In this document: positions 3,387 through 58,000 of the stretch, piece by piece
How the letters are laid out: each line of letters starts with the position of its first letter
Position numbering within the stretch: the first letter of the stretch is position 1
DNA from: Folioceros fuciformis
Lineage: Eukaryota
Assembly (NCBI GenBank): GCA_049999805.1
Contig: JBNGIO010005482.1
Location: forward strand, 1-61,857
Direction of reading: 5' to 3'
Length of the DNA stretch: 61,857 nt
The notes under the pieces: model-generated
What the model was told of the DNA's origin: nothing
Database searches by the model: none
Seen by the model: the letters and a program-made list of their open reading frames with translations, nothing else
Position numbers and translations under genes: made by a program

Positions 3387-6300
3387 AATAAGGCCTGCCG
3401 AACTGTAAACTGGACCCTGGACTGGAGGCGAATCTTTGTAGGCCAGCCTTGTCCCGTTATGCTGACTCTGGAGGTCAAGGGAATGGGGCCAAGTGGGGTT
3501 CAGTCTTCGCTCTCCCTTCATCACTGTTCTTGTTGTTTTTGCTGCTTATACCCGTGGGGCGTCACCTAAAACCCGGCCATTTCCCGGGGAGGTTTGGATA
3601 CAGTATGGCTGAGGCCTGTGTGTGCCTGTGGGTGATGAGACAGACAGTTGCAGAAAACGGGAGGCGAGTTTTGGCAAACTGGATTCAGGACCGAGATCTC
3701 GAAACTGATCATATTCTCCCTGCAAACACGCCTCCAAATCATGCAAACGCTGCTGCTCCTGCTGCTGCTGCTACAATACATACTAACAAGCTCTGACAGC
3801 CCCGAGGATGGGGGCAGGGCACGCCTGCCGTCGCCTGTCCACGCCAGCCGAGCCCTAGGGCTGTACATGTGGATGAAGGCTAGCGACATGCTCGATGTGT
3901 CGCCATGCCCCAGATGCTGCAGGCTGGTCCCGGAGTGGTGCAGGAAACGGCCATCGCGTCGGACGACAGTGGAGCCAGCGAGGCCTAGGTATGGCAGCAT
4001 GGCGGGATTCGGTATGCACCCAGTGTCTTGTGGGTGTTGGTCAGTGGTCAGTGGGGAGTAGGTGCTACGGAGGGCTCTAGAGAGAGAGAGAGAGGGAGGG
4101 AGCTTCTGATCACTTCTCTCACAAGGACAGGGCTGCGTACAGCATTTGTTTACTCAGCTCTGCAGCCTGCAGCTTGGAGCCTGGAGCCTAGAGCCTGGAG
4201 GAGGCCTTGGGTTTGTGTGCGAGTTTCAGATGACTGCATATGCAGGCAACACATGCACGAGAACTGGATCAGTTCGATGCTGTTGTGGGATCCAAGCTTG
4301 CGCGGTGCCCGCCCACGAGAAGCTTGGCATGGGTGGGGGACGACGAAAAATCTGCAGCGTTTAGAGGAGAAGATTCCAGCTTCCATGACCAGCTAATGAC
4401 AACTAGTGCGAAAGCCAAGTGTGTGAGTTCCGGTACTCCAGCCATTTCACCAAATGTAATCTCTACAGCTTAAAGAGCGCGGCTCTTGAGCCAAGCCCCG
4501 GGGATGGAAAGCCGAATGGAAACAGTACTACTCCCATCATGCCGGCCCACTCCCGCAATAATCATCACCATTCCCAGAATTCGGATCTCATTGGGCTTGT
4601 GACAAAATGTGGTTCTGCAACTGTACAACCATGGTCTGCACAACCATACTCTGCACACCCAAGTTTGAGCTCTACAAGCTTAAGATACGGCCAGCAACTC
4701 GAGGCCGTTGCTGTTTTTGGGAAGCTAAGAATAGATTCCGGTTGCCGTCTCAGACATGTTTGGCAATTGTTTGTCTGACGTAAGTTGTAGCGAGAAGCGT
4801 TACGCATGTTGGGTGGGTGGCAAGTCGTCGGTAGATCCCGTCGTTTTGGGGTGTTGGGGCCGGGGTGGGCCGAAGCTTGCCCACCTCCCATCCTATCTAT
4901 TTACAGTTTCTTCGCCTCACACGGAGCCAAATTCTGTTTCGGACAAGAAGTCACCATTTTGTCACGTCCCAGCCCTCCCTGTCGGCTGCAACGTTAGGGG
5001 TCGGCCAGCCTGCTAATAATATGGGCAACCGACCATTACATAACATGCTTTCTCCAGTCCACTCACCGTTGGATGGGTACTCAAATGCTGTAGCATGGAG
5101 GTTCATCCTGACCATGCGAGCATCTAAGCCCCACAGGATTCTTAACAAGCTGCTGCACACGGCTTCACTGGATTCTGGTCGGGGAACAGCCCTTGTGTAA
5201 GATCCCCATGTCAGCTCTGAGGACGGATCAGAGATTTCTTCATGCGCCATGCTCGGCGTTGCGGACCTACTCTGTTCACAACTTTCATGCTGCTTCAGTC
5301 CTTAGAGCAGATCTTACAGAGCTGAGGATCTGCGCATGGTTGCTGTGGAAGAACAGCTGGGAACGGGACACCGGTCCTAGAAGAAAACAGTGACTCTGGG
5401 GATACCAGATCTTTGTAGAATTCCAGTCCAGGACCTGGTTTAAACCATAACAGTCAACAACGTTCCTATGGCAATCTTCCATCTTCACGAACAATCTGGA
5501 CCAGTTCCTGTGTCTGGAAAGTAAAAATAGACGACGCGTTCGTTTTCATGTCTCCAACACTTGGGAACAGGCTTCATGAACCGTTATTTCTGCATTGAGA
5601 TACTCGTACGACGACAGACGTCTGACCGGGGTGGCCTCATTTCGTTTTTCGATTTCCAAGCATCTGGAGCGCATTCCACTGTAAACCATTTTCTGAACTG
5701 ATACCTTATCCTATGAGAAAGAGCTGCATAGTCCAGCGCAAGGGACTTACGTATGCCAGAAAGTGGCTTACCGGAACCTTAGCGGCTTCTTCTACCCTTC
5801 CACTATCTGGTTTCAGGGCAACCAGAGGATCACGCAGACGGGCACCTCCTGTGCCCGTCATCCTCACAACCTTCATTTGTCTCAGCAGCCCTAGCTGCAT
5901 CTATTGGTCTCCTTGTGGACAATCTTGCTTTACAGGTAACGTGGTACCCTTGGGAGAGCCTTTCGATAGGCTCCTCCTTGACGGCTATAAGCCAAGACGT
6001 CCAAACTCAGATTCTGTGGCCTTAGGCTTTGTTTGCCGATTCGTAAGCCTTCCTTTCCGACCATACCTCCAATGCTTAGCTCCTCATCTATTATTTACAG
6101 CAGAATGGCATCCATGGACGCAAACAGTACAACGTTCAAGTGCTCAATCCCACTGGCATAATCCAAGTATCCGCTTTGCTCTCGATCTCTGCAAGCAACT
6201 GGCTTCCCAGATGCACGTTTGTGCAGTAGGAAGACAAAAATGACGGAATTAGGTCTAGCAGTGCCTTCTTACTGCATCACTCTATAGAGCTAAAGGACTT

Positions 6301-6530
6301 CCTGGTCCATGCCCTGCTCGGAACACCTGCGATTGAAGCTGCCCACATCGCAACCACATCTTTCTCACCCACTCCATCAGCTATGAACACCCCGCGCACT
6401 CTCCAAGATGCTATAATTTGCATGGCACTTACCCTAAATATGGCCGAACTGACTTCCCTATTCCTGGCTCCCGGCCATAAAACCAGGGTTTAATCGCAAA
6501 GGCTGAGCCAGATCTACGTATGCTGCGGCC

Positions 6531-8457
6531 ATGGCCGGGGATGGGCAAGTGGACGATGTGCCCAAGGGGCAGCTCCCTGAGCACCTGGAGCTCCAGCGGA
6601 CGCGAGTGGTGTGCAACCCGGACGCGCCTATCTATGTACGCAAATCACTGTTGCTGCTCAGTTCTCTAACCCCGATTTCATTGACCTCTGCTCTGCTGGT
6701 TCCTGAATTGCTTGAACTGAATTTGCAGACGGACCCGGTGCACTACTCCGGAGCGTATATGTCCTCCGGGGTGGACAACAGCTTGACCTTTGATTCGTTC
6801 CGGAAGTACCTCAGGGTGCAGGTTACTCGGTTGACGGATGATGACATCGAGTTTGAAATCGCTGGTATCGATGCCTCCTTGGCCAACGCCTTCCGGAGAA
6901 TCCTCATTGCGGAGGTTTGGCTGTTGGACAGGCTTGCAGGGATGTTTTAGTCGTCAGAAATGTTGCCAGTACGTGACTCCGTAGCATTTGTCCTGCAGGT
7001 GCCCACGATGGCCATAGAGAAGGTGTTCATTGCGAATAATACTTCCGTCATTCAAGATGAAGTTCTGGCCCATCGGCTGGGTTTGATTCCCATCAAGGCC
7101 GACCCTCGGCTGTTTGATTTTAAGGAAGGTGGGACGTTGGACTGTACCCGATGGATGGTGACAGTCGCTGGATTGTTGTGTGTGTAGGGTAGGAATGCCT
7201 ATGAACGTGGACATGGTGCTGATTGGTTTCAGTGTTGAATGGGGGCTTCAGATGAAGAGGTTGCTTCTGAGAAGAACACTATTGTCTTCAAGCTGGATGT
7301 TAAGTGCTCGCGACAGGGAGAGAGGGTAAAAAATGCATCTGGTGCGTGGACTGTCTCTTCCCCGTCCGTCTTAGCCTTGGCTTGCTGGTTATGAGCTGGA
7401 GAGTGATTTGCTTTGCTGATCTTCTTGTGTTTGTGGCAGTGAAGTCAGACCAGCTCAAGTGGCTACCCCGAGGAAGTGAGATGCCCTTTGACACAAGCAC
7501 CAAGTACACATCTTTTGGTATCAGCCAAGATTCTCTTCCAGCATTTATGCACGATGGCATCGCCCCTCGGTACAGGGACATCATCGTTGCAAAACTGGGG
7601 CATCTTCAGGTACTACATCCATGGCTACCCCCTGCCTGACCTGATTCTGTCCTTCCTACCCGGTCAGAATGCAAATACGCGTTCGGTATCTGACCTCAGC
7701 TTGTTCGCGTCTGACTGTTGATCACAATCGCTGCCTGCTGGGGTGAGCAGGCAATTGAGCTAGAAGCTCATGCAGTGAAGGGAATAGGGAAGACGCATGC
7801 CAAGTGGTCACCAGTGGCTACTGCTAGATATAAAATGCTTCCCGAAGTATGGACGTAATCCAGCTCAGAATCTGTCTTCGCTTTTGTTCACCCACCAGAT
7901 ATGATGCAGGGTGCCTGAACTCCATCGCGTTGCACTCATGCTATTTCTGCTCGTTTCCCCGATAGGTGATATTGAAGGAAGAGTTCACCGGCGACTTGGC
8001 AGATCAGCTTGTTCAAAAGTGTCCTGTGAATGTTTTTGACATTGAAGACGTTGGTGCCGGTATGAGTCTGGCCCATGCCTGAAGCTTTGAAGTCTCCGGC
8101 TGATGTCAGAGCTCCTCTTGTGTGCTAAAACTAGGGTTTTGCTGTAACTGCAGGATGCCAACGTGCCACGGTTGCAAGGCCTAAAGACTGCACTTTGTGC
8201 CGGGAGTGTGTAAGGGACGATGGTTGGGACAAGAAGATCCAACTTCGGCGCGTTAGAGATCATTTTATCTGTAAGCCCGCAGTGCTAGCCTTGTCATGAC
8301 AATGGGTTACGTTCAGCAACACTAATCTTACTCATATCGTGGTTTCTTGACAGTCACTATAGAGTCTACAGGTGCGTTGCCACCAGAAGTCCTTTTCACA
8401 GAAGCGGTCAAGATCCTCGTGGAAAAATGCCAAAGAGTGTATGCCGATCTCTCCTGA
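6531..8457 (+). CDS. RPAC1: DNA-directed RNA polymerase I and III shared subunit AC40 (RPB3-like), multi-exon
   Basis: Exons give [89 protein letters not shown] and [23 protein letters not shown] introns; stop TGA at 8455-8457. Confidence 0.95.
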
Positions 8458-8650
8458 AGAAACAGTGGGAAGGCACAAAAGTCTTGCTGCGATAGTCCTA
8501 GCGAAGCCCTGCAGTCCAACCCTTCTGGCAAGTATGCAGATGGTTTGAGGCGGGTTTGCGATGGGAATGGGGCGAGTGTTGTTATTAGACAGGAGAAACC
8601 AGCGACTTCCTTTGCTCTTTTCTTGCCCTTGTCCACATGGTTGCACAGGA

Positions 8651-11494
8651 TTAAGGCTTGTCTCTACAAGAACAGGAGCCATCTACGAAGTGGTGTACCC
8701 CGTGTGCGTCTCTGACGATGATCTCTCGTCTTTCAAGGCGGGACATAATCTTGGTGCTGCTATGGCAGTCATTACACATGCGGAGATTTTTGTTGACCAG
8801 TAAAGTTGCCCCTTTTGGGGTGTTCATTAGACCGTAAGCCAAGGCGAGTTTCTCAGCATGTCCGCACAGAGCATCTTCCTTCTCCTGCTCACTCACGGCT
8901 TTCAGGACCAGCTGAGTCTGGGGCACATGACCTCCTTCCCCCTTCAACCTTGAGTTCACACTTCGCACTGCTGTTGAAACCTCAGACCGTTCTTCTCCCA
9001 CCTTGAACTCGTGCACCTTGTTGTTGACCTCGATGCATGCCTTGGCAGGCCTTTTCCAGGCACCTGCGGCCCTTCTGAGACTCTCTACTTTGTCCACGTC
9101 CGTCCACCTGCCAGAGTTTCCGTAGATGTTTCCTAGAAGTACGTAAGGGGTGGCGTTTTCAGGCTGCAGCGACACAAGTCGATCGAAACACAGTTTCCCA
9201 CGCTCCGCATCACTGTGGCGTTTGCAAGCAGTCAGCAAAGACGTCCAGCCCACCACGTCCCTGGGCATAGTCCGCAGAATAGCTTCTGCCTCGTCCAGAT
9301 GACCCGCCCGGCCCAGGAGATCGATCATGCACCGGTGGTGGTCGTCAGAAGGCAGAATGCCATGGTCGGTAACCATCGCCCTAAAGCATTGTTGGCCCTC
9401 ATTCACCAGGCCTGCATGGCTACATGCTACCAGAAGGCAGATGAAGGTAGTGTCATCTGGCTGCACCCCCTCCTCAAGCATCTCCCTAAAGCATTGCAAT
9501 GCCATCTCACCTTTGCTGTGTTCAGCGTAGCCGTTGAGCATGGCACTCCATGTCACCACGTTCCTGGAGGGTAGTCTGTCAAACACTCTCCGGGCATCCT
9601 GCAAGCTCCCGCATTTTGCATACATGTCCACCAGGCAGCTGCCAATGGACACATCCGCTTCCAGCCCCATTTCCTGAATCCGTGCATGCAGCTCCTTACC
9701 CTGACGCAAGGCACCAACGCTTGCACATGCTTGGAGGAGGCACACAAATGTAACCTGATTGGCTGGAGTGATGCCTTCCTGTTGCATACTTGCATACAGA
9801 CAAAGCGCTTCTTGACCCCTTCCCTGCTGGGAGTATCCTGCAATCATCGTGGTCCATGTTACAACATCTCTGGTAGGCAGGCTGTCAAACACCTCGCGTG
9901 CATCCTCCAGGCTCCCACATTTTGCGTACATGTCCACAATGCAGTTTGCAACGACAAGGTCAGCTTCGAGTCCCCTTTGCTTAAGCTCCACATGAAGCTG
10001 CTTTGCCCGATGCAGAGCTCCAGTGCTAGCACATGCTTGCAAGAGGCACACAAATGTGACTCGATCGGCAAGAGTGATCGCCTCCTGTTGCATCGTTGAG
10101 TACAGCGCAAGGGCTTCTTCACCGAGTCCATGCTGGGTGCATCCCGCAATCATGGAATTCCATGTGACCACAGTTCGTGAGGGCAATCTGTCAAACACTC
10201 TGCGAGCATCTTCCAAGCTCCCGCATTTTGCATACATGTCCACCAGGCAGTTGCCGATGAGCTCGTCTGCTCCTAGTCCCCTCTCCTCTATCTGTGCATG
10301 AAACTGCTTGCCCTGTTGCAGGGCTCCTAGACTAGCACAAGCTTTCAGGAGGCACACAAAAGTGACATGATTTGTTAGCATCAGGGAATCCTGTTGCCTC
10401 CTCTCATACAGAGCTAAGGCTTCCCCAGCAAGCCCCTGGTGCACATATCCTGCTATCATGGTGTTCAAGGTCACCACATCTGCTGTGGGCAAGGCATCAA
10501 AAACTCTGCGGGCATCCTTCAAGCTCCCGCATTTCGCATACATGTTCACCAGGCTGTTGCCGACATAGATGTCCATCATATGATCACTGGCCAGAATGTC
10601 ATCGTGGACCTCCGTGCCGGAAACCACATCGTCTGCAAGGGAACAGGCTTTTAGAACGGCCGCAAAGATATGGTTATCTGGCTTCACACACGAACCCCTC
10701 ATCCGTCGATACAGGTTAATAGCCTCCACAGGCTTTCCATGTTGGGCATGGGCCAGGATAACGGTAGCCCACAGATGGGAGTCCGGTGCAGGCACTTTAG
10801 TGAACACATACGACGCCTCCTCCAATCTCCCATGGGAAGCATACATGCCAACAATATGGGTGGCCAAGAATGCGTTTGACTCGTACCCACATTTGGAAGC
10901 AAGAACATGAACTCGCCTGGCAAGAACCAAATCCTTCTGTGACTTGCACAATTTAAGGACACGGTAAAAGAGAGAGACCTTCACAAACAATCCTCTTTGC
11001 ACCAGGAGGTCCAATGCCTCAACGCCCTCCTCCAGCTCACCATCCTCACAATGCCTATTCAGAGCTTTAACCAGAGAATTCCCCTCATACTTTGCTTCCC
11101 TGCACACGCCTCCACCACCAGCCCTCGAGGTTGATGGGGACCAAGCATCCCGCTCAGGTCGCAACCAGTAACGCATGTGTGCAGTTCTCTCGTCGTTGGA
11201 TGTCTTGTGCCTGAAGCCAGGATGATGGGGACTCCTCTCATCCACCCTACTCTCCCAGCGCTGCCTGGAATTCAAAGAAAAATCTGCCCAGGATAACTCC
11301 TGTAGCTCTCTATGAGGATGTTCTTCAGTGCTACGGTTGCCTTCCGGTTGGGCTGGGCGTGCCTTACCTGTTACCATACTAAGCACTGAGGACTGCCCGG
11401 AGCCTGGTTGTAAACCATCAGTCCAGCTCTGTTGGGCGTAAGTAATAACACTGCCAGCATCCAGAATTGACAATGTTGGGAATGCCACCGCCAT
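8651..11494 (-). CDS. Intronless PLS-class PPR protein with E1-E2-DYW:KP domain (candidate organellar U-to-C RNA editing factor)
   Basis: 947-aa ORF with repeated P/L/S motifs (VVTWNSMIAG, VTFVCLLQAC, GNCLVDMYAKCGSLEDARRVFD), then KRPAKACIEV, HAEKLALAYGL, NKNLRMCNDCH and HHFVDGSCSCRDKP. Confidence 0.95.
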   Translation of the reverse strand: MAVAFPTLSILDAGSVITYAQQSWTDGLQPGSGQSSVLSMVTGKARPAQPEGNRSTEEHPHRELQELSWADFSLNSRQRWESRVDERSPHHPGFRHKTSNDERTAHMRYWLRPERDAWSPSTSRAGGGGVCREAKYEGNSLVKALNRHCEDGELEEGVEALDLLVQRGLFVKVSLFYRVLKLCKSQKDLVLARRVHVLASKCGYESNAFLATHIVGMYASHGRLEEASYVFTKVPAPDSHLWATVILAHAQHGKPVEAINLYRRMRGSCVKPDNHIFAAVLKACSLADDVVSGTEVHDDILASDHMMDIYVGNSLVNMYAKCGSLKDARRVFDALPTADVVTLNTMIAGYVHQGLAGEALALYERRQQDSLMLTNHVTFVCLLKACASLGALQQGKQFHAQIEERGLGADELIGNCLVDMYAKCGSLEDARRVFDRLPSRTVVTWNSMIAGCTQHGLGEEALALYSTMQQEAITLADRVTFVCLLQACASTGALHRAKQLHVELKQRGLEADLVVANCIVDMYAKCGSLEDAREVFDSLPTRDVVTWTTMIAGYSQQGRGQEALCLYASMQQEGITPANQVTFVCLLQACASVGALRQGKELHARIQEMGLEADVSIGSCLVDMYAKCGSLQDARRVFDRLPSRNVVTWSAMLNGYAEHSKGEMALQCFREMLEEGVQPDDTTFICLLVACSHAGLVNEGQQCFRAMVTDHGILPSDDHHRCMIDLLGRAGHLDEAEAILRTMPRDVVGWTSLLTACKRHSDAERGKLCFDRLVSLQPENATPYVLLGNIYGNSGRWTDVDKVESLRRAAGAWKRPAKACIEVNNKVHEFKVGEERSEVSTAVRSVNSRLKGEGGHVPQTQLVLKAVSEQEKEDALCGHAEKLALAYGLMNTPKGATLLVNKNLRMCNDCHSSTKIMSRLERREIIVRDAHGVHHFVDGSCSCRDKP

Positions 11495-12589
11495 GTCGAC
11501 TTATACAAAGCTTCTATCTGGCTGGTTGCATGTTCAACCGACAGTCCTGTCCTGTTCTAATGTCCTCTCCACTAGCCCAGTCCACGAGAGAATCCATCAC
11601 ATGTCATGACTGCAGGAGTCACACAAATGTGACAGAATCAATTCCAGCTATGCCTTCTTCTTGCGCTTCGCAGTAGAGACAAAGGGTCTCTATCCCCATA
11701 CCCTGCTGGGAAAGGCCTGCATTCCAGGTCACCACACCTTCGCACGCAAGAACATCGAACACTATTTAAGCATCTTCCAAGCTACCACTCTTTGCATGCG
11801 TGCTCACCAAGCGGTTGGCCACGACGCCATTTCTTCGGCCTACACCTTTGTTAATCGTTTCTCAACTACTTCATCTGGCCAGGGTGCAGCTAGCAGCTCC
11901 GAGAGCGTAGAGTCGCAGAGAAGGTGGCTGGGAAGAAGCGCGCACGAGCCCGAGTCAAAAAACCCATCACCCCAAAGAGGAAAATCCTGTACCACTGCAC
12001 TCTCGACTTCCCGATAACCCGACCTCTACGCCGGCGATGTGTAGACACCGTCAGTCAAGGTATGGCAAGGCAAGGCGAGCCACAGTGACAACACGGCAGC
12101 AAACGGCGAGGAACGGGCACGAATGCACGCAGTTCACCAGCCTTGTGTATGCTGATCCTGCAAGTCGGAACTTCATCGGCCTGGCGGCGCGTGTCGTAAA
12201 TCGGCAGCAGCGTCTCCGTACCTCAACCCTTCCCGCCAACACCCAGCTCGCCTCCCCAACTCACTCCCACCCCCATATCCCAGCACTCTACCAACTGGAT
12301 CCCGCACACACAAGGTCTGCCCCTCCCCGCTACACAAACCCACGGATGCTCGCAGGTGCGGAGATGTGCACATCGAGGCTGTAGGAGCATGAGTCAACTG
12401 CTGTATTCTGCGTGCAGCTGAGAAGAAGGTGCGCTACAGGAGACCATGGAAGTGGTCATGAGGATCAGAAAGGAAGTAGCACGGGACACGCACAGGCTTG
12501 TACAGGGTTGCAGAGGGGTAGGCACCTGCACTCACAGGAATGGGAAGAGGACTGTGCAGGCCATGAAGAGCAGGCACCTGGACTCACAA

Positions 12590-17122: not shown

Positions 17123-19481
17123 ATGGCACAGGCGGCTATCAAGCCTGCTACCGTTGGGAGCTTTTTTCATCTTTCTGACAGCGGGCGTGGAAGATGGCCT
17201 GTAGGTGTAGCGGCGGGGCCCCAGAAGCGGGCATCCTGGAGGTGAGTGTGCTTGGTTTGGTTCGTGCATTTTTTCTGTTGGATAGGAGGATGTGCGATTC
17301 TGATACCTTTACATGTGCCGGCACGGCAGGTTTGTTTGTTGTGGACAGGATGTGAGAATGGGATTTCCGTCCAGGAGTGCGGGCGGGAGGCCGGTTGTGA
17401 AGGTGGATGCGGTTGCAACCGAAAATTGGATAGCTAGCGATGAGGCAGTGACAGCAGCTGCTGCTGAGCAGGCAATGGCTCTTGCTAGGGCTGCTGTGAA
17501 GGCAGCCAGGGATGTGGAAGCGCTGACCGCCAGGACGATGGCAGATTTTTCACTGGACTGCCTAGATGTGCAAGAGGAGGAGGAAGGCCTTGTTGATGCT
17601 TTTTATGACTCCAAGGACATTTTGAGGTTGAGGTTGGAGAGAGCGAGGCTGAGTGAAATGGAGAAGGCTGGCGCTGTGCAGGCGTTGCCGGGCGACGTGG
17701 ACCGGAGACTGGCAGATGTGGACAAGTTCGATCTGGAGTGGACGGAGAGTGATCTTATGGCGCTGTCGAATATGTCGTTGTTGTGCGACCAGAGTATCCC
17801 CGAGGCTGCAGAATATGCGGGCCCAGGGATTCAGCAGCCCGATGCTGAGCTTGACATCGGCAAGAGGCTCGAGGACTGCGAAGCAAACTCACCTGAAAAC
17901 GCTGTGGCCACTGTCTCGAGGCTTAGCACCAGGGAAGATGTGGCAGTGAAGTCAAATCGTCGGAAAGAGAGAGTGATGAAGAGAGAAAGGGCACTTGCCA
18001 AGGCAGAGAAGGCTGCCGCAGCCGTTGCGACTGCGGCTTCGTCAAGGACGAAGAAGTCATCGATCACCACAGATTCAGCAGGAGATCCTGTCCGAACCTA
18101 TCTTCGGGAGATTGGAAGGTCTCGCCTTCTCAGTGCTGCTGAAGAGGTGGAATTGTCTCAGGGCATCCAGGTAGATCCCTCAACTTGATGAGCATGACTG
18201 TATGAAGTGTTGTCTAGTGAGGATTCATGTGCGGTCAAACCGTTTTCGGAAGGCCTGTGCATTTGAGTTGTACTAATCCTAGGGGTTTTACAAAGTGCAG
18301 GACCTGATGAAATTGGAAGGAGTGAAGCGACGGCTGCATGAACAAATGGGCCGAGAGCCCACGGTCGCAGAATGGGGGAGGGCAGTTGGAATGTCGATAA
18401 GGCCCTTCGAGAACAGGCTCAATCGTGGTCAGGCTTGCAAGGATAAAATGGTGACCTCAAATTTACGGCTGGTGGTTTCGATTGCAAAGAAATATCAAGG
18501 TCGTGGCATGGCTTTCCAAGATCTAGTTCAGGTAATTGATGCACTGAATTTTGGTCTTGCCCCTGTGGAAACATGGCAAGCATTTTTTGCCATTTCCTGG
18601 CATTGACGGCGTTCTATGTTTGTAGGTAGGAAGCATCGGCTTAATTCGAGGTGCAGAGAAGTTTGATAGTACAAAGGGTTTCAAGTTTTCAACTTATGCT
18701 CATTGGTGGATAAGACAAGCAGTCACAAGAGCTATCGCAGATCAGTCTCGTATGATCCGTCTTCCGGTATTCTCTCCGCAGCCCTATCTTTTGCCTAGAG
18801 GAAGTTGGAACCGGTTACGAATGCAAGTCCTTGTTTTGACTCTCGCATCGCTGAAGTGGCGCTTCGTGTGACCTGCTTTTCCATTAGGTGCATCTGTTTG
18901 AGGTTATCTCTCGTATCAACAAGGCAAGAAAAATTGTTGCCCAAGAACATGGAAGGCCAGCTACCGATTCGGAGGTTGCAGAGCTAGTCGGTATGAGCGT
19001 GGAAAAGCTGAAACTAATCCTCAGATCTACCAAGGGCACTCAGTCAATGGAACGACCAATCGGCAGAGAAGGGGACAGTACCGTAGGGGTGAGATTTCCA
19101 TGTCATAGTGCATAGCGTGTACTGATTCACGCTGTGTACTATCTCTGATCTCCCTTTTACGTGCCTCCCCCCCTGTAGGAACTTGTCGCCGACGTGGAAA
19201 CAGAAACTCCTGAAGACGTCATATCTAAACGGCTCTTCAAACATGATCTGGATGTTGTCATGCGCACCCTAAGTGTTCGGGAAAGGGAGGTGCTGCGGCT
19301 GCGGTATGGGCTGGATGACGGGAGAATGAGAACGCTGGAGGAAATTGGCCATGTGTTTAAAGTCACTAGGGAGCGGATCCGGCAGATCGAAACAAAAGCC
19401 ATGCGGAAACTTAGACAGCCTGATCGCCATAAGGTCTTGCTTAACTATTTGGAATTTGCAAGCTCTAATGGGAGGAAGTAG
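17123..19481 (+). CDS. Nuclear-encoded plastid RNA polymerase sigma-70 factor, multi-exon
   Basis: Exon 1 (17123-17241) splices in phase to 17330. Region 1.2 [24 protein letters not shown]; region 2 [54 protein letters not shown]; region 4 [36 protein letters not shown] subtype not assigned. Confidence 0.95.
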
Positions 19482-25688: not shown

Positions 25689-28035
25689 AGTTTTGTATTT
25701 GAAGCTTGGCACTGCTGGAGGGGCGTATTCGGGAAGAGGTTTGTAGGAGAACGTGTTGATTCTTCCATGTCCACTACAATTTTGAGCCTCGCAAGTGGAG
25801 CCTCTCGGTGGACACGCAATTGTAAAACTTCGATTCTTGGTCGCCACCCATGACGTGTATGGATGGTTGGTGGCCCATTCTTTTACATATGTAATGTAAT
25901 GTAATGTATTGCGAATCTGTTTTCTCACTTGAGCTGCGCATGGGAGCAGGAGGTGATGTGGTTTACTGTCAGCTGTCTGCGGAAGAGATGATGGACCACG
26001 GAAAGGCTAGGCTGCAATACAAGTGCTTCACTGCAGCAGCACAGGGGTACGAAGAATCTCATCTGATTTCAGTCTCGGTCGAAGTGTCTTCTCCCACGTG
26101 TACATCTGTGTGGTGGGTACCCATCTCGGCTGCATACCGCACCTGGTCGGTGATGGGGGTGGTTTGCTTGTGTGTTTGAACTTTGCTTGGCCTGGGCCTG
26201 TTTCCCGTGTGCGTCGTCCTGGACTGGACTGAAGTGGTTGTTTTTTTTGTTTTTGTTAAGCATGTCGTTTGTGTTTGGTTAGAGAAAAGTGGCAGTGCTG
26301 GATGTGTGATAGCTTCCTTGTCTTTCCCGCGGCAAAAGAGCCCTTTTGGTTATACAGCATGTAACTTGTGTGGCAGTCTCATGATGAGCGGCTACTACGG
26401 GTATTCATCCGGGTGGTGCTCGTCTTATCGCCTTCCGTCATAGCCGCTTGCTTCTTGATCTTGGAACAACCCCAAGGCGTCCAGGTGCCCAGGAGCCCTG
26501 CCCTGACTGCGTCTGCGTTTGAACTTCACACTGTACTTTTGCATGCATCTGGATCTGGTACGTGACCTAAATCCATGCGCTTCATCACCCCGCCATTTCC
26601 TACTACTAAGCTTCAACGGTAGACTAGGGCATTTGCTGTTCTGTTGCCATCAGGGAGGGTGTAGATGTGTACCACGTGATCACTTGGAGCTCCCTGTCTG
26701 GCCCACTTTCTCCAAGCCCTCCAAGGTTAGTAGGTTGGTCTGCTGTGCCAACTAGAAGCACGGGCATCCACGGGCGACCTGCAAATGCTTTGTGAGATTC
26801 CCCTCTGCTACATGGCAGCTGGCATCCCCGCAACCCTTCCTTGCTTCTGTTGCTCGTTTCTTTCTTTTCCTTCCTTCTCTTCCTTCTCTTCCTTCTCCTG
26901 TTTTCTGGGTTGTCGTAGATTTTGGCGTCAGCCTTCCATCCTTGCCTGGCCTGGCCTGACCTGACCTGACCTGACCTCGCCTCATCATCAGCCAGCTCTC
27001 GTCTCGGTAAATTTCGTGCTTTTTTTTACTTGGCTTTGCATCAATTGGGTCTTCCATGGAGCCTGCGTCTCACCCCACAGCTCCCATGTACGGAACGTGC
27101 AGTGCCGAAGTAGTCGTTGGGCGGGTCAGTCGTCACCAGCCTTCTCTTCCACGCGGCTGTTCACGGGGATCTCGTACACAACATACATACATACATACAT
27201 ACATAACTGGCTCCAAACCAATTATGTGTCTGTGTACTATGTATGCAGTAGCTGAGGTTTTGCATTGCGGATAAGATAAATCCGCCAGCGTGTTCCGAAC
27301 CTTTTTCTGACTATGCATATCCACGTCTGGACACGGGATCCGAACGTCGCCGTTTCGAGACTGTACCTCTCCTGGCGAAATGGCGTTACTTCAACTTCCC
27401 CGGGCCAACCCTTTCGCCGTACCTGATGTCGTACCTAGCAGGTCTGTGGGAGAGAGGTTAGGCCCATGTTTTCCTCTCACTAGAGATCCATACCAAAACG
27501 GAGTTTAAGGTTGATCTTCTCCTCCATAACAAAGTACATATTCATTTGCATAACAGAAGATTTTATTCTTGTTTATGATGTTGGCTAGTTATATCTTGTC
27601 ATTGTTATGCGGGTTGAGCCAACCCATTAAAAGAGACAAGAACAAAGGGAGCTAGCCGGGTGGATGCCTATGTTCAAACTTTATATATGCATATAATCAT
27701 AAACTTTAGTTCTTATAAAATTCATGTTTATATTATTTTTTAAAAATATTATAGCTATAATAAATTATTATTACTTGTAATATAATATTATTTTAATTGA
27801 TAATTTAATTTACTTTAATGATTTTAAATAAATTTTATAATAAATGGGAAGGAGGAAAAAAGAAAAGGTTAGAATGCAGTACCCTTTGCCCACTTGATAC
27901 ACCCTCCATATGAGCTTAAGAAACACATAGTAAGTTGAACCCGAAGTAAGCCACATTAATACTAGGTAATGGGCAAGTTTCACTACTTTAGAAAAGTTAG
28001 TTCTAAAGCAAAGAATTTTTTTTTTTGTTTTCTTT

Positions 28036-28446
28036 TCATGTGTGATATCTTCCTGTAGTCTTCTTCTTAGGTGGAGGTGTGGAACTACTCAAAGAACTTT
28101 GTGTTATTTTCTTGCCCATGTAAAACTGTGGCATTATTCGCACATTTTCTTGACCAAATTCTTTGATGTACATTTCCAATAANNNNNNNNNNTCCAATAA
28201 GCTTTTGGGAAACTTAACAAGAAGATCCCAATACGAAATCCAGTCTTGTCGCTCTAGGCTCTCTCCTGGTATAGCATCCCATCTTACTAAAAAATCAGTG
28301 AACAAGTACTTACTCAATGCCTTTGTTCTATGTGTGATTATTCTATCAGGAGGTGCAACTTGTTCCATACTTGGGTTAAGATTAAGACCAAAAGGTTCAT
28401 CAACTTGAATTATTTTAGATGGATGCTTATCTAACTCACTCATCAT
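28036..28446 (-). CDS. Small protein with a chromodomain-like segment
   Basis: PDRIITHRTKALSKYLFTDFLVRWDAIPGESLERQDWISYWDLLVKFPKSLL resembles chromodomains (xxIxxxR...FLVxW...W...FP); basic C-terminal PPPKKK could be an NLS; spans a 10-N gap. Confidence 0.5.
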   Translation of the reverse strand: MMSELDKHPSKIIQVDEPFGLNLNPSMEQVAPPDRIITHRTKALSKYLFTDFLVRWDAIPGESLERQDWISYWDLLVKFPKSLLXXXXLLEMYIKEFGQENVRIMPQFYMGKKITQSSLSSSTPPPKKKTTGRYHT

Positions 28447-28797
28447 GATTCCAGCCAATGCATACCCTTTTCTATGAAAAAATTGTACTCATAGATTAGC
28501 TTGTGACCTGACCTCTCAACATATGCACCAGACATATGAAACGTTAATTTTCATGTCCTGTAATAGACTTCAAAAATCAACATTAGGCTTGTGATTTGTG
28601 ATTAGGCTTGTGATTTGTGACTAGTGATTACGTTTATGTGTATTTTTCTAAAAGTAAAAAAATATCATTTTAGAATTTCATCATCCTTTGCAAGCAAATA
28701 GTTTAAGAAACTTATATTCTAACAAAATTTTAAAACAAGTATTGTATTTACTTGGAGTTTAGAATAAACAATTCAAGAACTCATAGGCACATCTCTA

Positions 28798-29655
28798 ATG
28801 TCGGAGTTTGGAGAGAATATGCTGCAAAATACAGCACATGTGCCATTCTTAAAGGAGTATGTTTTGAAGAGGTTAACTAATCAGGTGACTGGTGAACAAT
28901 CAAGTTACCCTATTTTACGTCCATGGCCACGAGGTACTATAAACTTACTCCTTCATCTTAACCTTAATATGATGCATGAATTTGCACTACAATGCAATGA
29001 AGAAATATAGTGAAAAAAGTCATTCAAATATTTTTTTAAAAAATTATTATTATTATTATTATTCTTATTCTAGAAATAAATAACAAATAATTTGGTGGAT
29101 ATTAGGGCACTGATTTTATTTGGCATTCCACAGGGTCTATGGTGTTGAAAAAACATCAAAGCACGACACGAAGTGATCCTCGATTAATTGTTGACATTAA
29201 TTGGTCCATAGACCCTAATACTATATGGCGGGAGCTGCATCCCAACACAAGAGAGGTATTTATTTAAAGTAATAATAATGGTAATAAGAGTAGGGTGTGA
29301 TTTACAAACTTATTAACGACTAGTTTTGTTTTAGGTTAAGTATTATGTATTTGCAGGTAAGAGGTGGTCTGTTGTAAATCCTTTTAATTTCAAAAATAGC
29401 GTACAATTAAAAGAATCAGTGGAATATATTCTCTCGCAATTGATAAAATTTTACTTGGAGGATTACATACTACGAGGTTACACATTCGGAGACAACAATG
29501 CATTGGAGGAGGACCATATTTTAAACTATGGAGAGAAAGATATATACATAAGTTGTCAAGCAAAACCCGAATCGTTGTATATTTATTTTTTCTTCGAAGC
29601 GCTCGGCGCTTATGAAAATTATCCTTTTCAAGAAAAAGATCACGAAGGTGGTTAA
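28798..29655 (+). CDS. Orphan 3-exon gene, 192 aa (exons 28798-28933, 29134-29255, 29335-29655)
   Basis: Two AT-rich GT-AG introns with matching phases (1 and 0) join three stop-free segments from ATG to TAA. Confidence 0.55.
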
Positions 29656-29840
29656 GTGGATGTTGTTTAAGCACATAAGCAACGGAAGATCCATATATCC
29701 TCCACTTGAAGCAACCAACATGTTTGGACATACAAACATAAGACTGGTTCTTAAGCATGTTCTTTTCTAAGCATTGTTGTTGTTGTTGTTGCATTTTGTT
29801 AAAAATGTGTTTGTAGCTCATGTAGGAGTAATCTTACAAG

Positions 29841-30524
29841 GTGGGTGACCTTGGCATCACAGGTGTGTTTATTGTAAGAGAGCTTCTAGAAGATGGAGTG
29901 GACGTTGGATTTACGAACAAGCGGCATGTGATTACCTTATACTATGGTGAACGAACAGCAATGGAGAGGATTAATGAGAAACGACAAGTGGTTTGGACGT
30001 GGATGTTTGCTATAGACCCACGAGAAGGCTTTTTGGATCCTCCTTGTACTCGGGCTACTGAGCATCCTACTTCTTATAGAGTTGTGGAAGGAGAAGGGGG
30101 TCCGTTTCTCGAAATGCTCTACACTGATCAGACGATGGCAGTCATTATACAACGGATTCTAGGTGAAGGAGGACCTTTTCTTATAGCTTATCCCCAGTAT
30201 CCTAGGGCTGGATTAGCTAAGATCTTACCACAAATGGTGAGTCTTATCATTTCTATTTGGGTTCATAATGTGGGTTCACAAACATTTCGCATGCAGTTGC
30301 ATACTGGGCGATATGTGTTCTCCTTTGATAAACCGCATCCCAAGGCTTGGATGATCGTCGAAGTGAAGACATATAGTCGTTGTAGTGCAATGCATCCTTG
30401 GTCAATCAGTGATCTTCAAGAAACTCTTCGTATAGCTCCTGCTGGATCCAATCCAGAAGATGACCAACATCTTAGAGACAGAGTTAGTAGAAAGCTTGAA
30501 TATGTCATAGAAGAGGTTGATTAA
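29841..30524 (+). CDS. Orphan ORF of ~227 aa (true start or upstream exon unresolved)
   Basis: Long open frame in AT-rich DNA with protein-like composition; internal GEGGPFL repeated twice. Confidence 0.5.
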   Translation: MGDLGITGVFIVRELLEDGVDVGFTNKRHVITLYYGERTAMERINEKRQVVWTWMFAIDPREGFLDPPCTRATEHPTSYRVVEGEGGPFLEMLYTDQTMAVIIQRILGEGGPFLIAYPQYPRAGLAKILPQMVSLIISIWVHNVGSQTFRMQLHTGRYVFSFDKPHPKAWMIVEVKTYSRCSAMHPWSISDLQETLRIAPAGSNPEDDQHLRDRVSRKLEYVIEEVD

Positions 30525-41664: not shown

Positions 41665-43418
<1,754 letters not shown>

Positions 43419-49474: not shown

Positions 49475-49819
49475 CAAGATTGCGCGAAGAAGAATGCGTC
49501 TGACAACTGGTAGGGTGCCAGTGAAGTGAAAAAAAACGATCTCCGAGGATAGTTCTCTCATGCGAGCGAATGTCTTCTCGAATGTGAGCTCCGGATATTT
49601 GAACGTTCCAGACGGGACACACCTATGGGTGTCCGATTTGTGATCTTTTGTAAAGCAAATTGAAATTAAAATGCTCCAATTTATAATCAGCTCTATTTAC
49701 TCTTCCTCCTTACTAGTACATTGCGCTCCTTAGAGGCTTCACAGAGCCATGGCTGCTGGAGCGTGCCGATTGAGAGTCACTCCAAGTCACCTGTTGAGTT
49801 GACAAGGCAATATTTCGCA

Positions 49820-50525
49820 CATATTCTGTGACATTTGTGTGCTTTATGCAGGCATGTGTGAGTGTAGGTGACCTAGAATTGGAGGTGGAGAAGTGGCTTC
49901 GCACACAAATCAAAGAAAAAGGAGATCAAGCTAATGTTGTTGTGATTGGGAGAATGGGTTCAGGATACTCCGCAGCTAATTTAAGGCAACTTGATCACAA
50001 AGATGTCGGGATAGTGATCTCTCTTAACGTACGATCTACCCAACAGGGTACGGGAAAGGAATCCCTTCATCTTCATCTCTACAGTGGTATACAAGCAGTA
50101 GGCATCACAGGACCCGATTCTGTGACTTTCGTCTGCCTCCTGCAGGCATGGAACCCCAGTTTTGGAGACAGGGAACAAGATTCATGTGAAAGGTAGTGAA
50201 CTATGACATCAGTATGATAGCCATTTGTAGCCAGCAGCTTCACAAGCATGTAAAGCGTGGCAGTCTGTAGGATGCTTAGACACTACTGGATGGACTTCAT
50301 TGAGACAATGTGGTCCCGTGGAATGTCAAATTTCATGGTATTCCTAGGTCAGGAGGCCATTCGCCTCCACAGTGCTATCCAAGAAAAGGGCGCCAACACA
50401 CCCTATTCAGTGACAATTGCGTGTCTCCTACGGGCATTGGGGTGGAGGCATCTTCGGCTTCGAAGATGGGGAAGCAGCTTCATGCATAAGTTACAAAAAC
50501 GGGACGTCACATTTATGTGTGTTTA
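49820..50525 (+). pseudogene. Decayed PLS-PPR fragment
   Basis: VTFVCFMQACVSVGDLE, GITGPDSVTFVCLLQAW, GQEAIRLHSAIQEKG and SVTIACLLRA in disrupted frames. Confidence 0.75.
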
Positions 50526-50762
50526 GCCAACAGCGTGGCCTCATGTTCCCGAACCCCGAATCCAACGGGTTGAAGGCTAAAACGAGTGGCAGCCCCTTCC
50601 CAAGATGCCGCTTGCAAGGTATTTGGTTGTGATGGCTGTTAAGAGCTTCTGTTTTCACTATAATATCTGTTCTTCTTTCAAAGTTCTCAGGTTTGATGGG
50701 GCCGTTACTGCCCCTGGGTTGACGTGGCCTCTCCCTGACTCTTCATGACCTTCGAAGCCCAA

Positions 50763-55062: not shown

Positions 55063-58000
55063 TGTGAACGGCGTGCAAGATGTGGAGGTTGTGCAAGCGG
55101 TTGTTGCCAAAACTAAATGAACAATACAATTAAAATGTTTACAAAAATGTGTTTATATACTTATGACCTAGAGTCATATTATTTCACTTTAATTAAATAT
55201 ATTTAATCTAAATTAAATATATACAACCCTAAGTGTGACATAGCTTGTTATCTTAACACTCCCTCTCATGATTCACGCTTAGGTATTGGTTTGTCCAAAG
55301 CAGTCTCCACAAAACAAAACAAAACCAATAGTCCACCAGCGGCCAATGATTCTCCATGCATGGGGCGTCTCCCACTCTATGGTAGAAAACACATGTGCTA
55401 GCGGCGTGGTTGCAGTAGCTCTGAATTTGAAGAAAAACTCATGAACAAACAACTTGAAGATAAATAACTCACGACTGATTGTCTACATGTGGCTTCATCC
55501 ACTGAGTTATCTGTTCTCCCATGTATTATGTGCCATTCACATATGCTGAGTAATCACCCAGCCCTAAGCCATCCATATGCTTATAGTGTTTTGGCTTTGA
55601 AAGTGCTTTGGTTAGAATGTCGGCCACATTATCATCTGTTCCAACAAAGCTAACCTTTGTTACCCCTCTATCTACAGCATCCCTGATGTAGTGATGGGAT
55701 ATCTCTATATGCTTTGTGCATGCGTGGAAACGAGTTAACATGAGTTAACACGAGTTAGCAACCAAAGCAAGTGCTAACATGTTGTCACAAAGTATGGGGG
55801 TAGGATCCTATTGTGTCTGCCCCAAGTCTTGTAAAAACATCCTCTCCCATTCAGCCTCCTTGGTGGCTTCAGTGAGAGATTTATACTCTGCCTCCGTTGA
55901 AGACAAAGATATGGAGGGTTGTTTCTTGCTTCTCCAATTGATGGCAGCTCCTGCAAGAAGAAAGCAATATGTGGAGAGGCTGCGATAGGAGTCACCATCA
56001 GACGCCCAATCGGCATCTGTAAAACCTTGTAGAATGAGTTTAGCCTTGCCACTACGCTTATATATGAGCCCATGTGTCAAAGTGCCTTTTAAGTATCTGA
56101 AAACACACTTAACGGCAACCCAATGAGCCCTACCCAGATGTTCTAGAAATTGCAACACTATGCTTACAGCATACTGAATATCAGGTCGGGTCCAATTCAC
56201 CACAAAAATGAGACTTCCAACAGCGTGTCTATATGGAACATCTTGCATATCCAACTGCTCCTCTAGGGTTTGCGCACATTGAAGAGTAGTGACCTTCACA
56301 CCCATAGCAGCAGGAGTAGTAGCTGGTCGTGCCTCATCCATATGAAACTTAGTCAAAATTTCCTTGATGTACTTGTTTTGATGTATGGCCATCAACCCAT
56401 CAGCCCTCACCAATTGGATCCCTAAACAAAACTTCAAGTCACCAATATCCTTCATTTCAAATTTGTTAGATAAAAGCTGCTTGACATGTTCTAAAAGGGT
56501 CTTGTCATTTGTGGCTAATATTACGTCATCAACGTATAAAGCCAAAATAACGTATGAGGAGCCTTGGGTAAGCATATATATATTGGAATCAGCAATACTT
56601 TGTACAAAGATAATTTCCAATAGTAAATATGCATGGTAAAGTACCATACTCTACCAGATTGCTTGATCTACATCCTAATGGATTGAGATCTAACCACAGG
56701 AGTGAATGTCTCTTGATAATCTAGGCCTTCAACCTGCGTGAATCCCCTAGCAATGAGTCGAGATTTATAACGTGCTATCTCTCCTTTGAAGTTGAGCTTG
56801 TGCTTGAAAACCCACTTGCACGAGATGGGTTTTCTGCCATGTGGCAAATCCACTAACTTCCAAGTATTGTTCTTGATCAAGGATTGATACTCATCCTCTA
56901 CTGATATGCGCCACTTGTCACCATCAGAGCCCAATAGGGCTTGCTTCAAACTGATTGGCTCATTAGGGATGACAGCAGCAAGTGATGTGGAAGTGTTGCG
57001 AAAATCTATAGACTCGTAGGGGGGCTCAATCCACTCGGCTCTAGGTGGTCTTTGGCGGGTGGATCTGCACAACTTGGGTTCTGGTGGAACTTCTACAACT
57101 TGTGGCGGTATGACGTCTGGCTCTAAAGCAGGTTCATGGTCATCCTGAATAAGGTCAAGAACTACATCTTCCATGAGAGGTTCATGGTCATGTGTAGGGT
57201 CATGTTGGATATCTTGTGCATCTAAAACAGGCGGAGGGTTAGCTGACAACTCATCATCTTGTGGATACACAGCAGGTACCTCATAAGTGTCCTGCTCATC
57301 ATCATGATCAGCTAATGGATGTGCTCCCTCTGCCGCAGGATGTGCTCCCTCTGTTGACGTTGCCGGTTCACCATGGGCACAGCTAGGTTCAATGAAAGTG
57401 ATGCTACGAGCTAAGGTTAAAGAGTGAGTAACCGGATCATAGAGCTTGTATGCCTTGGCAGTCTCACTGTATCCGATGAAAACAAGGCCCTTTGCTCTCA
57501 TGTCAAGCTTCCTCCTCTTTGCGGAAGGGATATAAGCAAATGCCTTAGCTCCAAATACTCGAAGATGCAGTAGACTAGGTTTACGCTTCCAGAATACCTC
57601 ATATGGTGTCCTTCCATGTACAGCACTGGTGAGCACGCGATTGAGAATGTACGTTGCAGCAACTACAGCCTCTGCCCAATACCCTTGAGGGAGACCTGTC
57701 CGAAGCAACATACTCCTTGTCATTCGTAACAGAGTTTGGTTCTTGCTCTCGGCAACTCTATTCTGTTGTTGACTATAGGGTACAATTAGTTGACGCTGAA
57801 TGCCATGTTGTGCAAGGTACTCGTCGAAAGCGGCGTTGAAAAATTCCGTCTCATTGTCCGTGCGCAGCATTCTAAGAAGATGACCAGACTGTCGCTAGGC
57901 AACTAGTAACCATTTGTGGAAACAAGTGAATGTATCACTCTTCAACTACATAGGAAAGGTCCCCGTATACCTACTATAGTCGTCGGTCAAGCATAAGTAG

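Follow-up and report, generated by a model that had tools for sequence, protein, structure and literature searches.

The window analysed here is a stretch of 61,857 nucleotides of the Folioceros fuciformis genome (assembly GCA_049999805.1, contig JBNGIO010005482.1, positions 1 to 61,857 of the forward strand). On its reverse strand it carries an intronless gene for a PLS-class pentatricopeptide repeat (PPR) protein ending in a deaminase-like domain of the DYW:KP type (Table 1). This gene probably encodes a PLS-PPR / DYW:KP family factor for site-specific editing in organelles that converts U to C; such an activity is proposed by analogy, because the protein belongs to that family. A preliminary description, made from the letters alone, had pointed to the domain at 8651-9055, a range whose limits are exactly K814 and the stop codon.

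Table 1. Features of the PPR gene and its upstream relic, with positions in the window
Feature	Position	Strand	Basis
Intronless coding sequence (CDS), PLS-class PPR-E1-E2-DYW:KP protein, 947 codons and TAA	8651..11494	-	Open reading frame list, translation, Pfam
Stop codon TAA	8651-8653	-	Translation
C-terminal triplet D945-K946-P947, at the place of D-Y-W	8654..8662	-	Translation
DYW:KP deaminase-like domain, 133 residues, R815-P947	8654..9052	-	Pfam, tree, hidden Markov models
CNDC, residues 907-910, CxxC zinc ligands Cys907 and Cys910	8765..8776	-	Translation
Lys902, domain position 88, within KNLRMC	8789..8791	-	Position count
HAEKLA, residues 879-884: zinc ligand His879, class-specific Ala880, catalytic Glu881 (roles by analogy)	8843..8860	-	Translation
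KP box KRPAKACIEV, residues 814-823, at the place of the PG box	9026..9055	-	Translation, alignment with PG-type proteins
E1 (residues 747-780) and E2 (residues 781-814)	9053..9256	-	Pfam E_motif, alignment with homologues
PPR array, 18 motifs, residues 135-746	9257..11092	-	Manual segmentation with script check, Pfam
Residues 1-134, without PPR similarity, presumed organelle targeting region; ATG start presumed	11093..11494	-	Motif parse
PPR relic (end of S1, P1, start of L1) with in-frame stop, outside the gene	11619..11861	-	tblastn, 58% identity, E 9e-19

The open reading frame (ORF) at 8651-11494 (-) stays in one open frame throughout its 947 codons. Its product has the motif order P-L-S, four P1-L1-S1 triplets, P2-L2-S2, E1, E2 and a DYW domain of 133 residues. 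As in other PLS-class PPR-E1-E2-DYW factors, the PLS array ends in P2-L2-S2, E1 and E2 stand between the array and the DYW domain, and the C-terminal deaminase-like domain has the HxE(x)nCxxC signature (H879-A-E881 and C907-x-x-C910). The internal PPR repeats are 48-63% identical in tblastn searches, which gave no PPR match between 11080 and 11607. The length is 36 residues in three of the four P1 motifs and 30 in the S2 motif, which has an Arg at position 5; the two-residue gap at the end of S2 is common to two aligned hornwort-type proteins.

Pfam identified the array with E values of 2e-80 (PPR) and 7e-75 (PPR_2), E_motif with 1.8e-14 at residues 760-821, and DYW_deaminase with 3.8e-35 at residues 855-945, where positions 1-91 of the 93 in the profile are covered. 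A DYW_deaminase match of this strength inside a 947-codon ORF of PPR and E motifs makes the motif match far beyond chance. All four landmarks of the preliminary description are present where it had read them: KRPAKACIEV in place of the PG box, HAEKLA in place of HSEKLA, an intact CxxC in the form CNDC, and a DKP end with TAA next to it. Within a large family of editing factors that is already known, the product is ordinary and represents no new kind of enzyme.

Diagnostic residues and class placement of the domain

Domain positions are counted with the last residue set to 133, following F133 of the 133-residue designer protein KP6. Positions 1-9 then read R-P-A-K-A-C-I-E-V, with R815 at position 1; H65-A66-E67 are H879-A880-E881, K88 is K902, and C93 and C96 are C907 and C910. 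The KP box (K-P-A-x-A) retains its P, A and A, with R for the leading K. Box position 1 is K in 43 of 51 well-parsed HAE proteins; in the other eight it is R (two, the Folioceros protein being one of them), L (three), M, Q or I (one each). An R at this position is therefore within the range of the family, as eight of the 51 lack K there. The partial list of changes relative to a related species, described below, holds no difference at the R815 codon.

In the HxE motif, published work gives Ser for PG types and Ala (or Cys) for KP types (PMC9478123, PMC11845758), and the Folioceros protein has HAEKLA; on the KP side of the tree described below, the middle residue is A in 47 of the 68 proteins, C in 13, S in seven and V in one. 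At 133 residues and without the SHP stretch, the domain has the length characteristic of KP types (132-133 residues, without xHP). The alignment puts a gap opposite SHPQ of the solved domain 9kfx, and opposite the PG rows too. Also as in KP types, the C-terminal triplet is other than DYW (DKP), and there is a Lys at position 88 (K902, in KNLRMC), which from the numbering and the conserved KNLR context would be equivalent to Lys88 of KP6. The alignment with solved DYW domains shows conservation of CxDCH, HHF and CSC in the C-terminal part. The domain carries C6, A116 and V119, as does KP6u, a variant of KP6 that edits only U to C.

From 510 candidates, a word-indexed search that used residues 760-947 returned 77 matches. 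Approximately twenty of the best are unnamed assembly proteins with 57-73% identity, most of which have DRH or GRP ends. The best named matches are from the ferns Adiantum (53%) and Ceratopteris (50%), and those under about 45% identity are angiosperm HSE/DYW proteins. When 1.84 billion cluster representatives were searched with phmmer, 2632 matches had E <=0.001, 1687 had E <=1e-10 and 167 had E <=1e-30. The relatives sampled from these searches comprise 223 proteins, 218 of which have a near-full DYW match. The middle residue of HxE in these 218 is S in 153, A in 47, C in 13, G in three and V in one, and is unreadable in one.

A tree of 124 rows and 124 columns was made with IQ-TREE (LG+C20 with posterior mean site frequencies, PMSF; short search). 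Its rows are all 65 of the non-Ser proteins, 19 Ser proteins that have an xxPA box and 40 taken at random from the other 134 Ser proteins, with 94 left out. Columns 1-8 (the box), 111 (the middle of HxE) and 181-188 (the terminus) were removed beforehand. With these diagnostic columns removed, the tree is split into 56 PG-type and 68 KP-type rows, with a support of 99 in the Shimodaira-Hasegawa-like approximate likelihood ratio test (SH-aLRT). The Folioceros protein is on the KP side, nested within clades of 34 rows (support 90), 21 rows (93) and eight rows (87); a grouping with PG-type domains, named in the preliminary description as the outcome that would contradict its KP assignment, is not seen in this tree. 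The nearest row, P0003, has 80% identity over the retained columns, and the terminal branch of the Folioceros protein is 0.15 against a median of 0.33. The 21-row clade contains eight proteins ending in DRH, one in DRH plus VV and four in GRP, together with single DAH, DHH, VDH, DSP and DRY ends and others. The two named fern proteins, from Adiantum and Ceratopteris, are in the other 34-row KP clade, within an 11-row group (support 96). The nesting among DRH- and GRP-ending proteins, together with the short introns (83-141 bases) of a neighbouring gene, points to a hornwort.

One result spoke against this placement. A first approximately unbiased (AU) test, done with treekit, did not reject a position of the Folioceros protein among the PG types (p 0.635), the constrained tree being 11 log-likelihood (lnL) units above the quick free tree. 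This comparison was judged uneven, since a long constrained search had been set against a short free search. The AU tests were repeated with equal search effort under LG+G4. For a set of 39 rows (14 PG, 24 KP and the Folioceros protein), the free and KP-constrained trees have the same lnL of -6478.27 and the PG-constrained tree has -6521.86, a difference of 43.6 (p-AU 0.007). When all 124 rows were run in fast mode, the 68 non-PG rows fall together on one side of the free tree (lnL -18503.3), and the PG-constrained tree is 129 lnL units worse (p-AU 0.009). The constrained searches in fast mode are rough, since the KP-constrained run ended 73 lnL units under the free tree, although the free tree meets that constraint.

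Home-made hidden Markov models (HMMs) of the subclasses, built from the groups obtained here with the Folioceros protein left out, gave its domain 239 bits for the DRH/GRP clade (20 rows), 207 for all KP (67 rows), 193 for the other KP (47 rows) and 160 for PG (56 rows). Phylogeny and subclass HMMs, both of which the preliminary description had named as ways to check its KP assignment, support that assignment. Judged by these comparisons, it is close to certain that the domain belongs to the DYW:KP family.

The preliminary description had also considered the DKP end to differ from DRH and GRP. It does, being present in one of 58 HAE-type proteins, the Folioceros protein only. There are more than 30 different endings in these 58 proteins: DRH in 13, DMF in five, GRP in four, DRP, DHH and DNH in two each, and more than 20 found once, DSP, ERP and DKL among them. 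Since the terminus is so variable across the family, DKP should be seen as a minor variant. Its D is as in DRH, its K is conservative for R and its P is as in GRP. The D-R-H end of the hornwort DRH variant is absent despite the tree position among DRH proteins, and neither the G-R-P end nor membership of the GRP clade is found, the four GRP proteins being a separate clade (support 91). From its sequence, the protein is best called a DRH-lineage protein with an altered end. An orthologue was sought among shorter proteins, as a sign of conservation of DKP in a related species; none was present in the 19 matches, the best of which have 76-81% identity. Contigs of that species begin at 8871 or span 8630-8768.

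Constraint, transcription and surroundings

Contigs from a related species are approximately 92% identical to the gene, with 60 differences over 8871-9631. The codon comparison is a sample covering residues 724-859 (8918-9325), with 216 further differences outside the list. Third codon positions account for 26 of the 39 listed differences, and the 36 changed codons comprise 23 synonymous and 13 non-synonymous ones. The preliminary description had called the gene intact, and this holds, with an open frame of 947 codons in which the changes relative to the related species are mostly synonymous. In a DNA-type run of the related species, X4, there are eight single-base deletions within the orthologous ORF (8938-10433). 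They are not seen at the same places in X5, an RNA-type run from the same sample, and are more likely to be assembly or read errors than frameshifts.

Convergent with the PPR gene is a gene for an Rpb3/AC40-like RNA polymerase subunit at 6531-8457 (+), which has nine exons and its stop codon at 8455-8457, leaving 193 bases between the two stop codons. It was identified from a Pfam match to RNA_pol_L and a weak one to RNA_pol_A_bac, both to single exons. Its eight GT..AG introns, of 83-141 bases, are all spliced out in contigs of run X1, and seven are in X5. None of these joints is found in the DNA runs X2 and X4, and one X2 contig is unbroken across 6300-8879. As their contigs join across GT..AG introns, runs X1 and X5 hold RNA. 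Contigs of X1 match most of the PPR ORF without differences (8855-9631, 9616-10058, 10231-10550 and 10530-11900), the one ending at 11900 extending 431 letters further. This coverage hints at transcription of the PPR gene, which is probably expressed.

The polymerase subunit gene has a spliced X1 contig (8354-8879) that lies antisense to the final 229 bases of the PPR CDS. Either the convergent transcripts truly overlap at their 3' ends, or the assembler has merged two transcripts. In each of the four runs, summed contig depth over the central PLS triplets (9479-10600) rises to values in the hundreds to thousands; in DNA run X2, for example, it is 2318 and 4235 on central triplets against approximately 12 on the flanks, and many contigs fit two places. 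Such depth reflects many near-identical PPR motifs elsewhere in the genomes and not copy number.

The PPR relic lies 125-367 bases upstream of the ATG in another frame, and has a stop codon where intact motifs have Arg. A contig of X1 passes through it without a gap. The relic points either to the loss of an N-terminal triplet or to a partial duplication. A longer, frameshifted gene that includes it was considered and is ruled out by the in-frame stop of the relic itself and by its different frame. Broken PPR-like pieces in several frames are also found at 49798-50546 (+), such as ...SVTFVCFMQACVSVG... and ...DSVTFVCLLQAW..., with 28-58% identity to triplets of the Folioceros protein in tblastn. 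This region looks like a decayed PLS-type PPR pseudogene.

Elsewhere in the window, a copia-type long terminal repeat (LTR) retroelement at 55808-59812 (-) extends over three ORFs, which hold gag (Retrotran_gag_2), SH3_retrovirus with the start of RVT_2, and the remainder of RVT_2; its reading frame is broken, since it is split in this way. Sigma-70 region 1.2 is found at the end of an ORF at 17313-18188 (+), probably one exon of a gene for a plastid sigma factor. A haem peroxidase domain is represented by its C-terminal part in an ORF at 41665-42555 (-). The G+C content of 27001-30000 is 0.358, compared with approximately 0.50 elsewhere in the window.

Predicted target and direction of editing

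KP proteins are described as occurring only in hornworts, lycophytes and ferns, and have been matched to U-to-C sites by the PPR code (PMC9478123, PMC11845758). The hornwort variants described are DRH and GRP, and most KP domains are reported to have 132-133 residues and no xHP stretch, where the PG type has 136 (PMC9478123). Out of seven consensus designer proteins, three are reported to edit U to C in E. coli: KP2 and KP3, which are of the GRP type, and KP6, of the fern type; for KP2 and KP3 the same source records no C-to-U editing in bacteria (PMC9478123). Changing HAE to HAA or CxxC to AxxA abolished the activity of designers, and changing HAE to HSE abolished or reduced it (PMC9478123). 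Lys88 is described as essential to U-to-C editing, its replacement switching the enzyme to C-to-U, and C6, A116 and V119 pushed KP6 toward U-to-C (PMC11845758).

By analogy with the designer KP proteins, the nuclear-encoded Folioceros protein would enter the plastid or mitochondrion, where its 18 PPR motifs together with E1 and E2 may bind a single transcript over approximately 20 nucleotides, each motif to one base. The DYW:KP domain would thereby come to lie over a pyrimidine four nucleotides downstream of the base bound by S2. The putative active centre consists of the zinc site (His879, Cys907 and Cys910), Glu881 and Lys902, and the active-site lysine may attack C4 of uridine in the conversion of U to C.

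In the PPR code, the pairs NN and NT stand for a pyrimidine. T or S with N stands for A, NS for C, TD for G and ND for U (PMC13386178, PMC12733224), and KP designers edit four nucleotides downstream (PMC9478123). With S2 set at -4, the bases predicted for the target are G at -19, U at -16, Y at -15, Y at -13, U at -12, U at -10, A at -9, A at -7 and G at -6. The predicted string from -19 to -6 is therefore G-n-n-U-Y-n-Y-U-n-U-A-n-A-G, derived from the nine of the 18 motifs that are readable, all of them P and S motifs. Under the code used, L motifs and the pairs N/K, A/D and R/D gave no base.

Several points weigh against assigning U-to-C editing to this gene. The Lys that gives the KP box its name is Arg in the Folioceros protein, and the S2 motif is unusual, both in the Arg at its position 5 and in being two residues short. 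Of the three changes in the C-to-U variant KP6c, the domain carries two, G64 and V113, and E64G and L113V are reported to have moved KP6 toward C-to-U (PMC11845758). Designer KP1, which is DRH-based and the nearest to the Folioceros protein, is among the four of the seven for which the published account gives no detectable editing in E. coli (PMC9478123). KP6 edits in both directions (PMC9478123), with both activities in human cells and C-to-U editing in vitro (PMC9478123, PMC11332814), and in vitro reconstitution of U-to-C editing is reported to have failed (PMC11332814). According to a 2025 paper the activity of natural KP proteins is still unknown (PMC11845758), and no assay of a native hornwort KP protein from after that paper turned up among the records listed by the literature search. 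Run X1 also covers the region upstream of the ORF, where carry-over of DNA is possible, and does not prove transcription of the gene.

Some of these points would fit a genuine KP-clade factor that is C-to-U or bidirectional in vivo and uses ordinary hydrolytic deaminase chemistry at the same zinc/glutamate centre. The dual activity of KP6 in human cells and its C-to-U editing in vitro favour such a factor, as do the match of G64 and V113 to the KP6 changes and the absence of U-to-C editing by the DRH-based designer. Set against these are the Lys retained at position 88, the loss of which switches KP proteins to C-to-U, the presence of HAE and not HSE, the residues C6, A116 and V119 of the U-to-C-only variant, and the hornwort-based KP2 and KP3, which edit U to C without C-to-U in bacteria. 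G64 is, moreover, common in the alignment to close hornwort-type homologues, GRP-ending ones included, and should for this reason be taken as the normal state of the clade. An enzyme working from C to U or in both directions is considered unlikely. It is quite unlikely that this DRH-lineage enzyme, with its DKP end, Arg at box position 1 and mixture of KP6 residues, differs from the designers in its direction or in how it lets go of the RNA once edited; if it did, this could help to explain the failure of the DRH-based design.

The gene could also be a redundant or decaying paralogue that is no longer catalytic, either a mere RNA binder or a young pseudogene with its frame still open. There are PPR relics nearby (11619-11861, with its in-frame stop, and the broken pieces at 49798-50546), the family is very large, the S2 motif is atypical in having 30 residues with R at position 5, the KP box has R for K, and transcription of the gene is only hinted at. 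However, the 947-codon frame is open with all catalytic and zinc-binding residues intact, the third-position differences (26 of 39) and synonymous codons (23 against 13) predominate, and the terminal branch is short at 0.15 against the median of 0.33. Decay of this kind is very unlikely. A catalytic editing factor acting from U to C is the reading preferred here.

Significance and comparison with known systems

U-to-C editing is presented in the literature cited here as the sole pyrimidine transition without an assayed natural enzyme, and its chemistry as unsettled, a lysine crosslink model having been put forward (PMC11845758, PMC11332814). As no natural U-to-C enzyme has been assayed, an intact native KP gene is a possible test object. 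The Folioceros gene is a clean, full-length and probably transcribed example from the DRH lineage, in which the consensus design had failed. KP genes have been catalogued in 22 hornwort, six lycophyte and five fern genomes (PMC13386178, PMC12733224). Among these catalogued genes the present copy is distinguished only by its variable terminus, and its worth is that of a routine annotation. Nothing in it is categorically new; it is a well-formed hornwort member of the DRH/GRP lineage of DYW:KP proteins with a variant end.

Structures are available for PG-type proteins, to which the homology extends over the whole domain: the synthetic PPR-DYW protein 9kfx (1.4e-45), DYW1 (7w86, 5.6e-32) and OTP86 (7o4e, 1.8e-31). 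No chain labelled as KP type was found in this structure search. The Folioceros protein shares with PG types the HxE...CxxC signature, the lysine of KNLR, the HHF...CSC elements and the PLS-E1-E2 architecture. It differs from them in that the PG box is replaced, HSE is changed to HAE, four residues are missing at the SHP stretch (133 residues compared with 136) and the DYW end is absent, and the two are on opposite sides of the split supported at 99.

The fern and lycophyte DYW:KP proteins (KP6 and the hypothetical proteins of Adiantum and Ceratopteris) have in common with the Folioceros protein the KP side of the tree, HAE and the KPAxA box. Their identity to it is 50-56%, and unlike it they belong to the separate 34-row subclade and have ends such as DMF. 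The GRP variant (KP2 and KP3, which are active in U-to-C editing) is within the same 21-row subclade as the Folioceros protein, with 63-66% domain identity, and has the final Pro, HAE, Lys88 and CxxC as well; the differences are ...AGIEV in its box, its GGRP end and its own four-row clade.

Closest is the DRH variant, the basis of KP1 (Ichinose et al. 2022, PMC9478123), with 67-79% DYW-domain identity to unnamed proteins ending in GDRH; KP1 itself is likened to the Folioceros protein by way of these DRH proteins and not by direct alignment. Like the Folioceros protein, the DRH variant has a KKPAKACIEV-type box with Cys at position 6, HAEKLA and a domain of 133-134 residues without SHP, and it shares both the 8-row and the 21-row clades. 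The Folioceros protein differs from it in ending in DKP, a change of two residues, and in having R and not K at box position 1.

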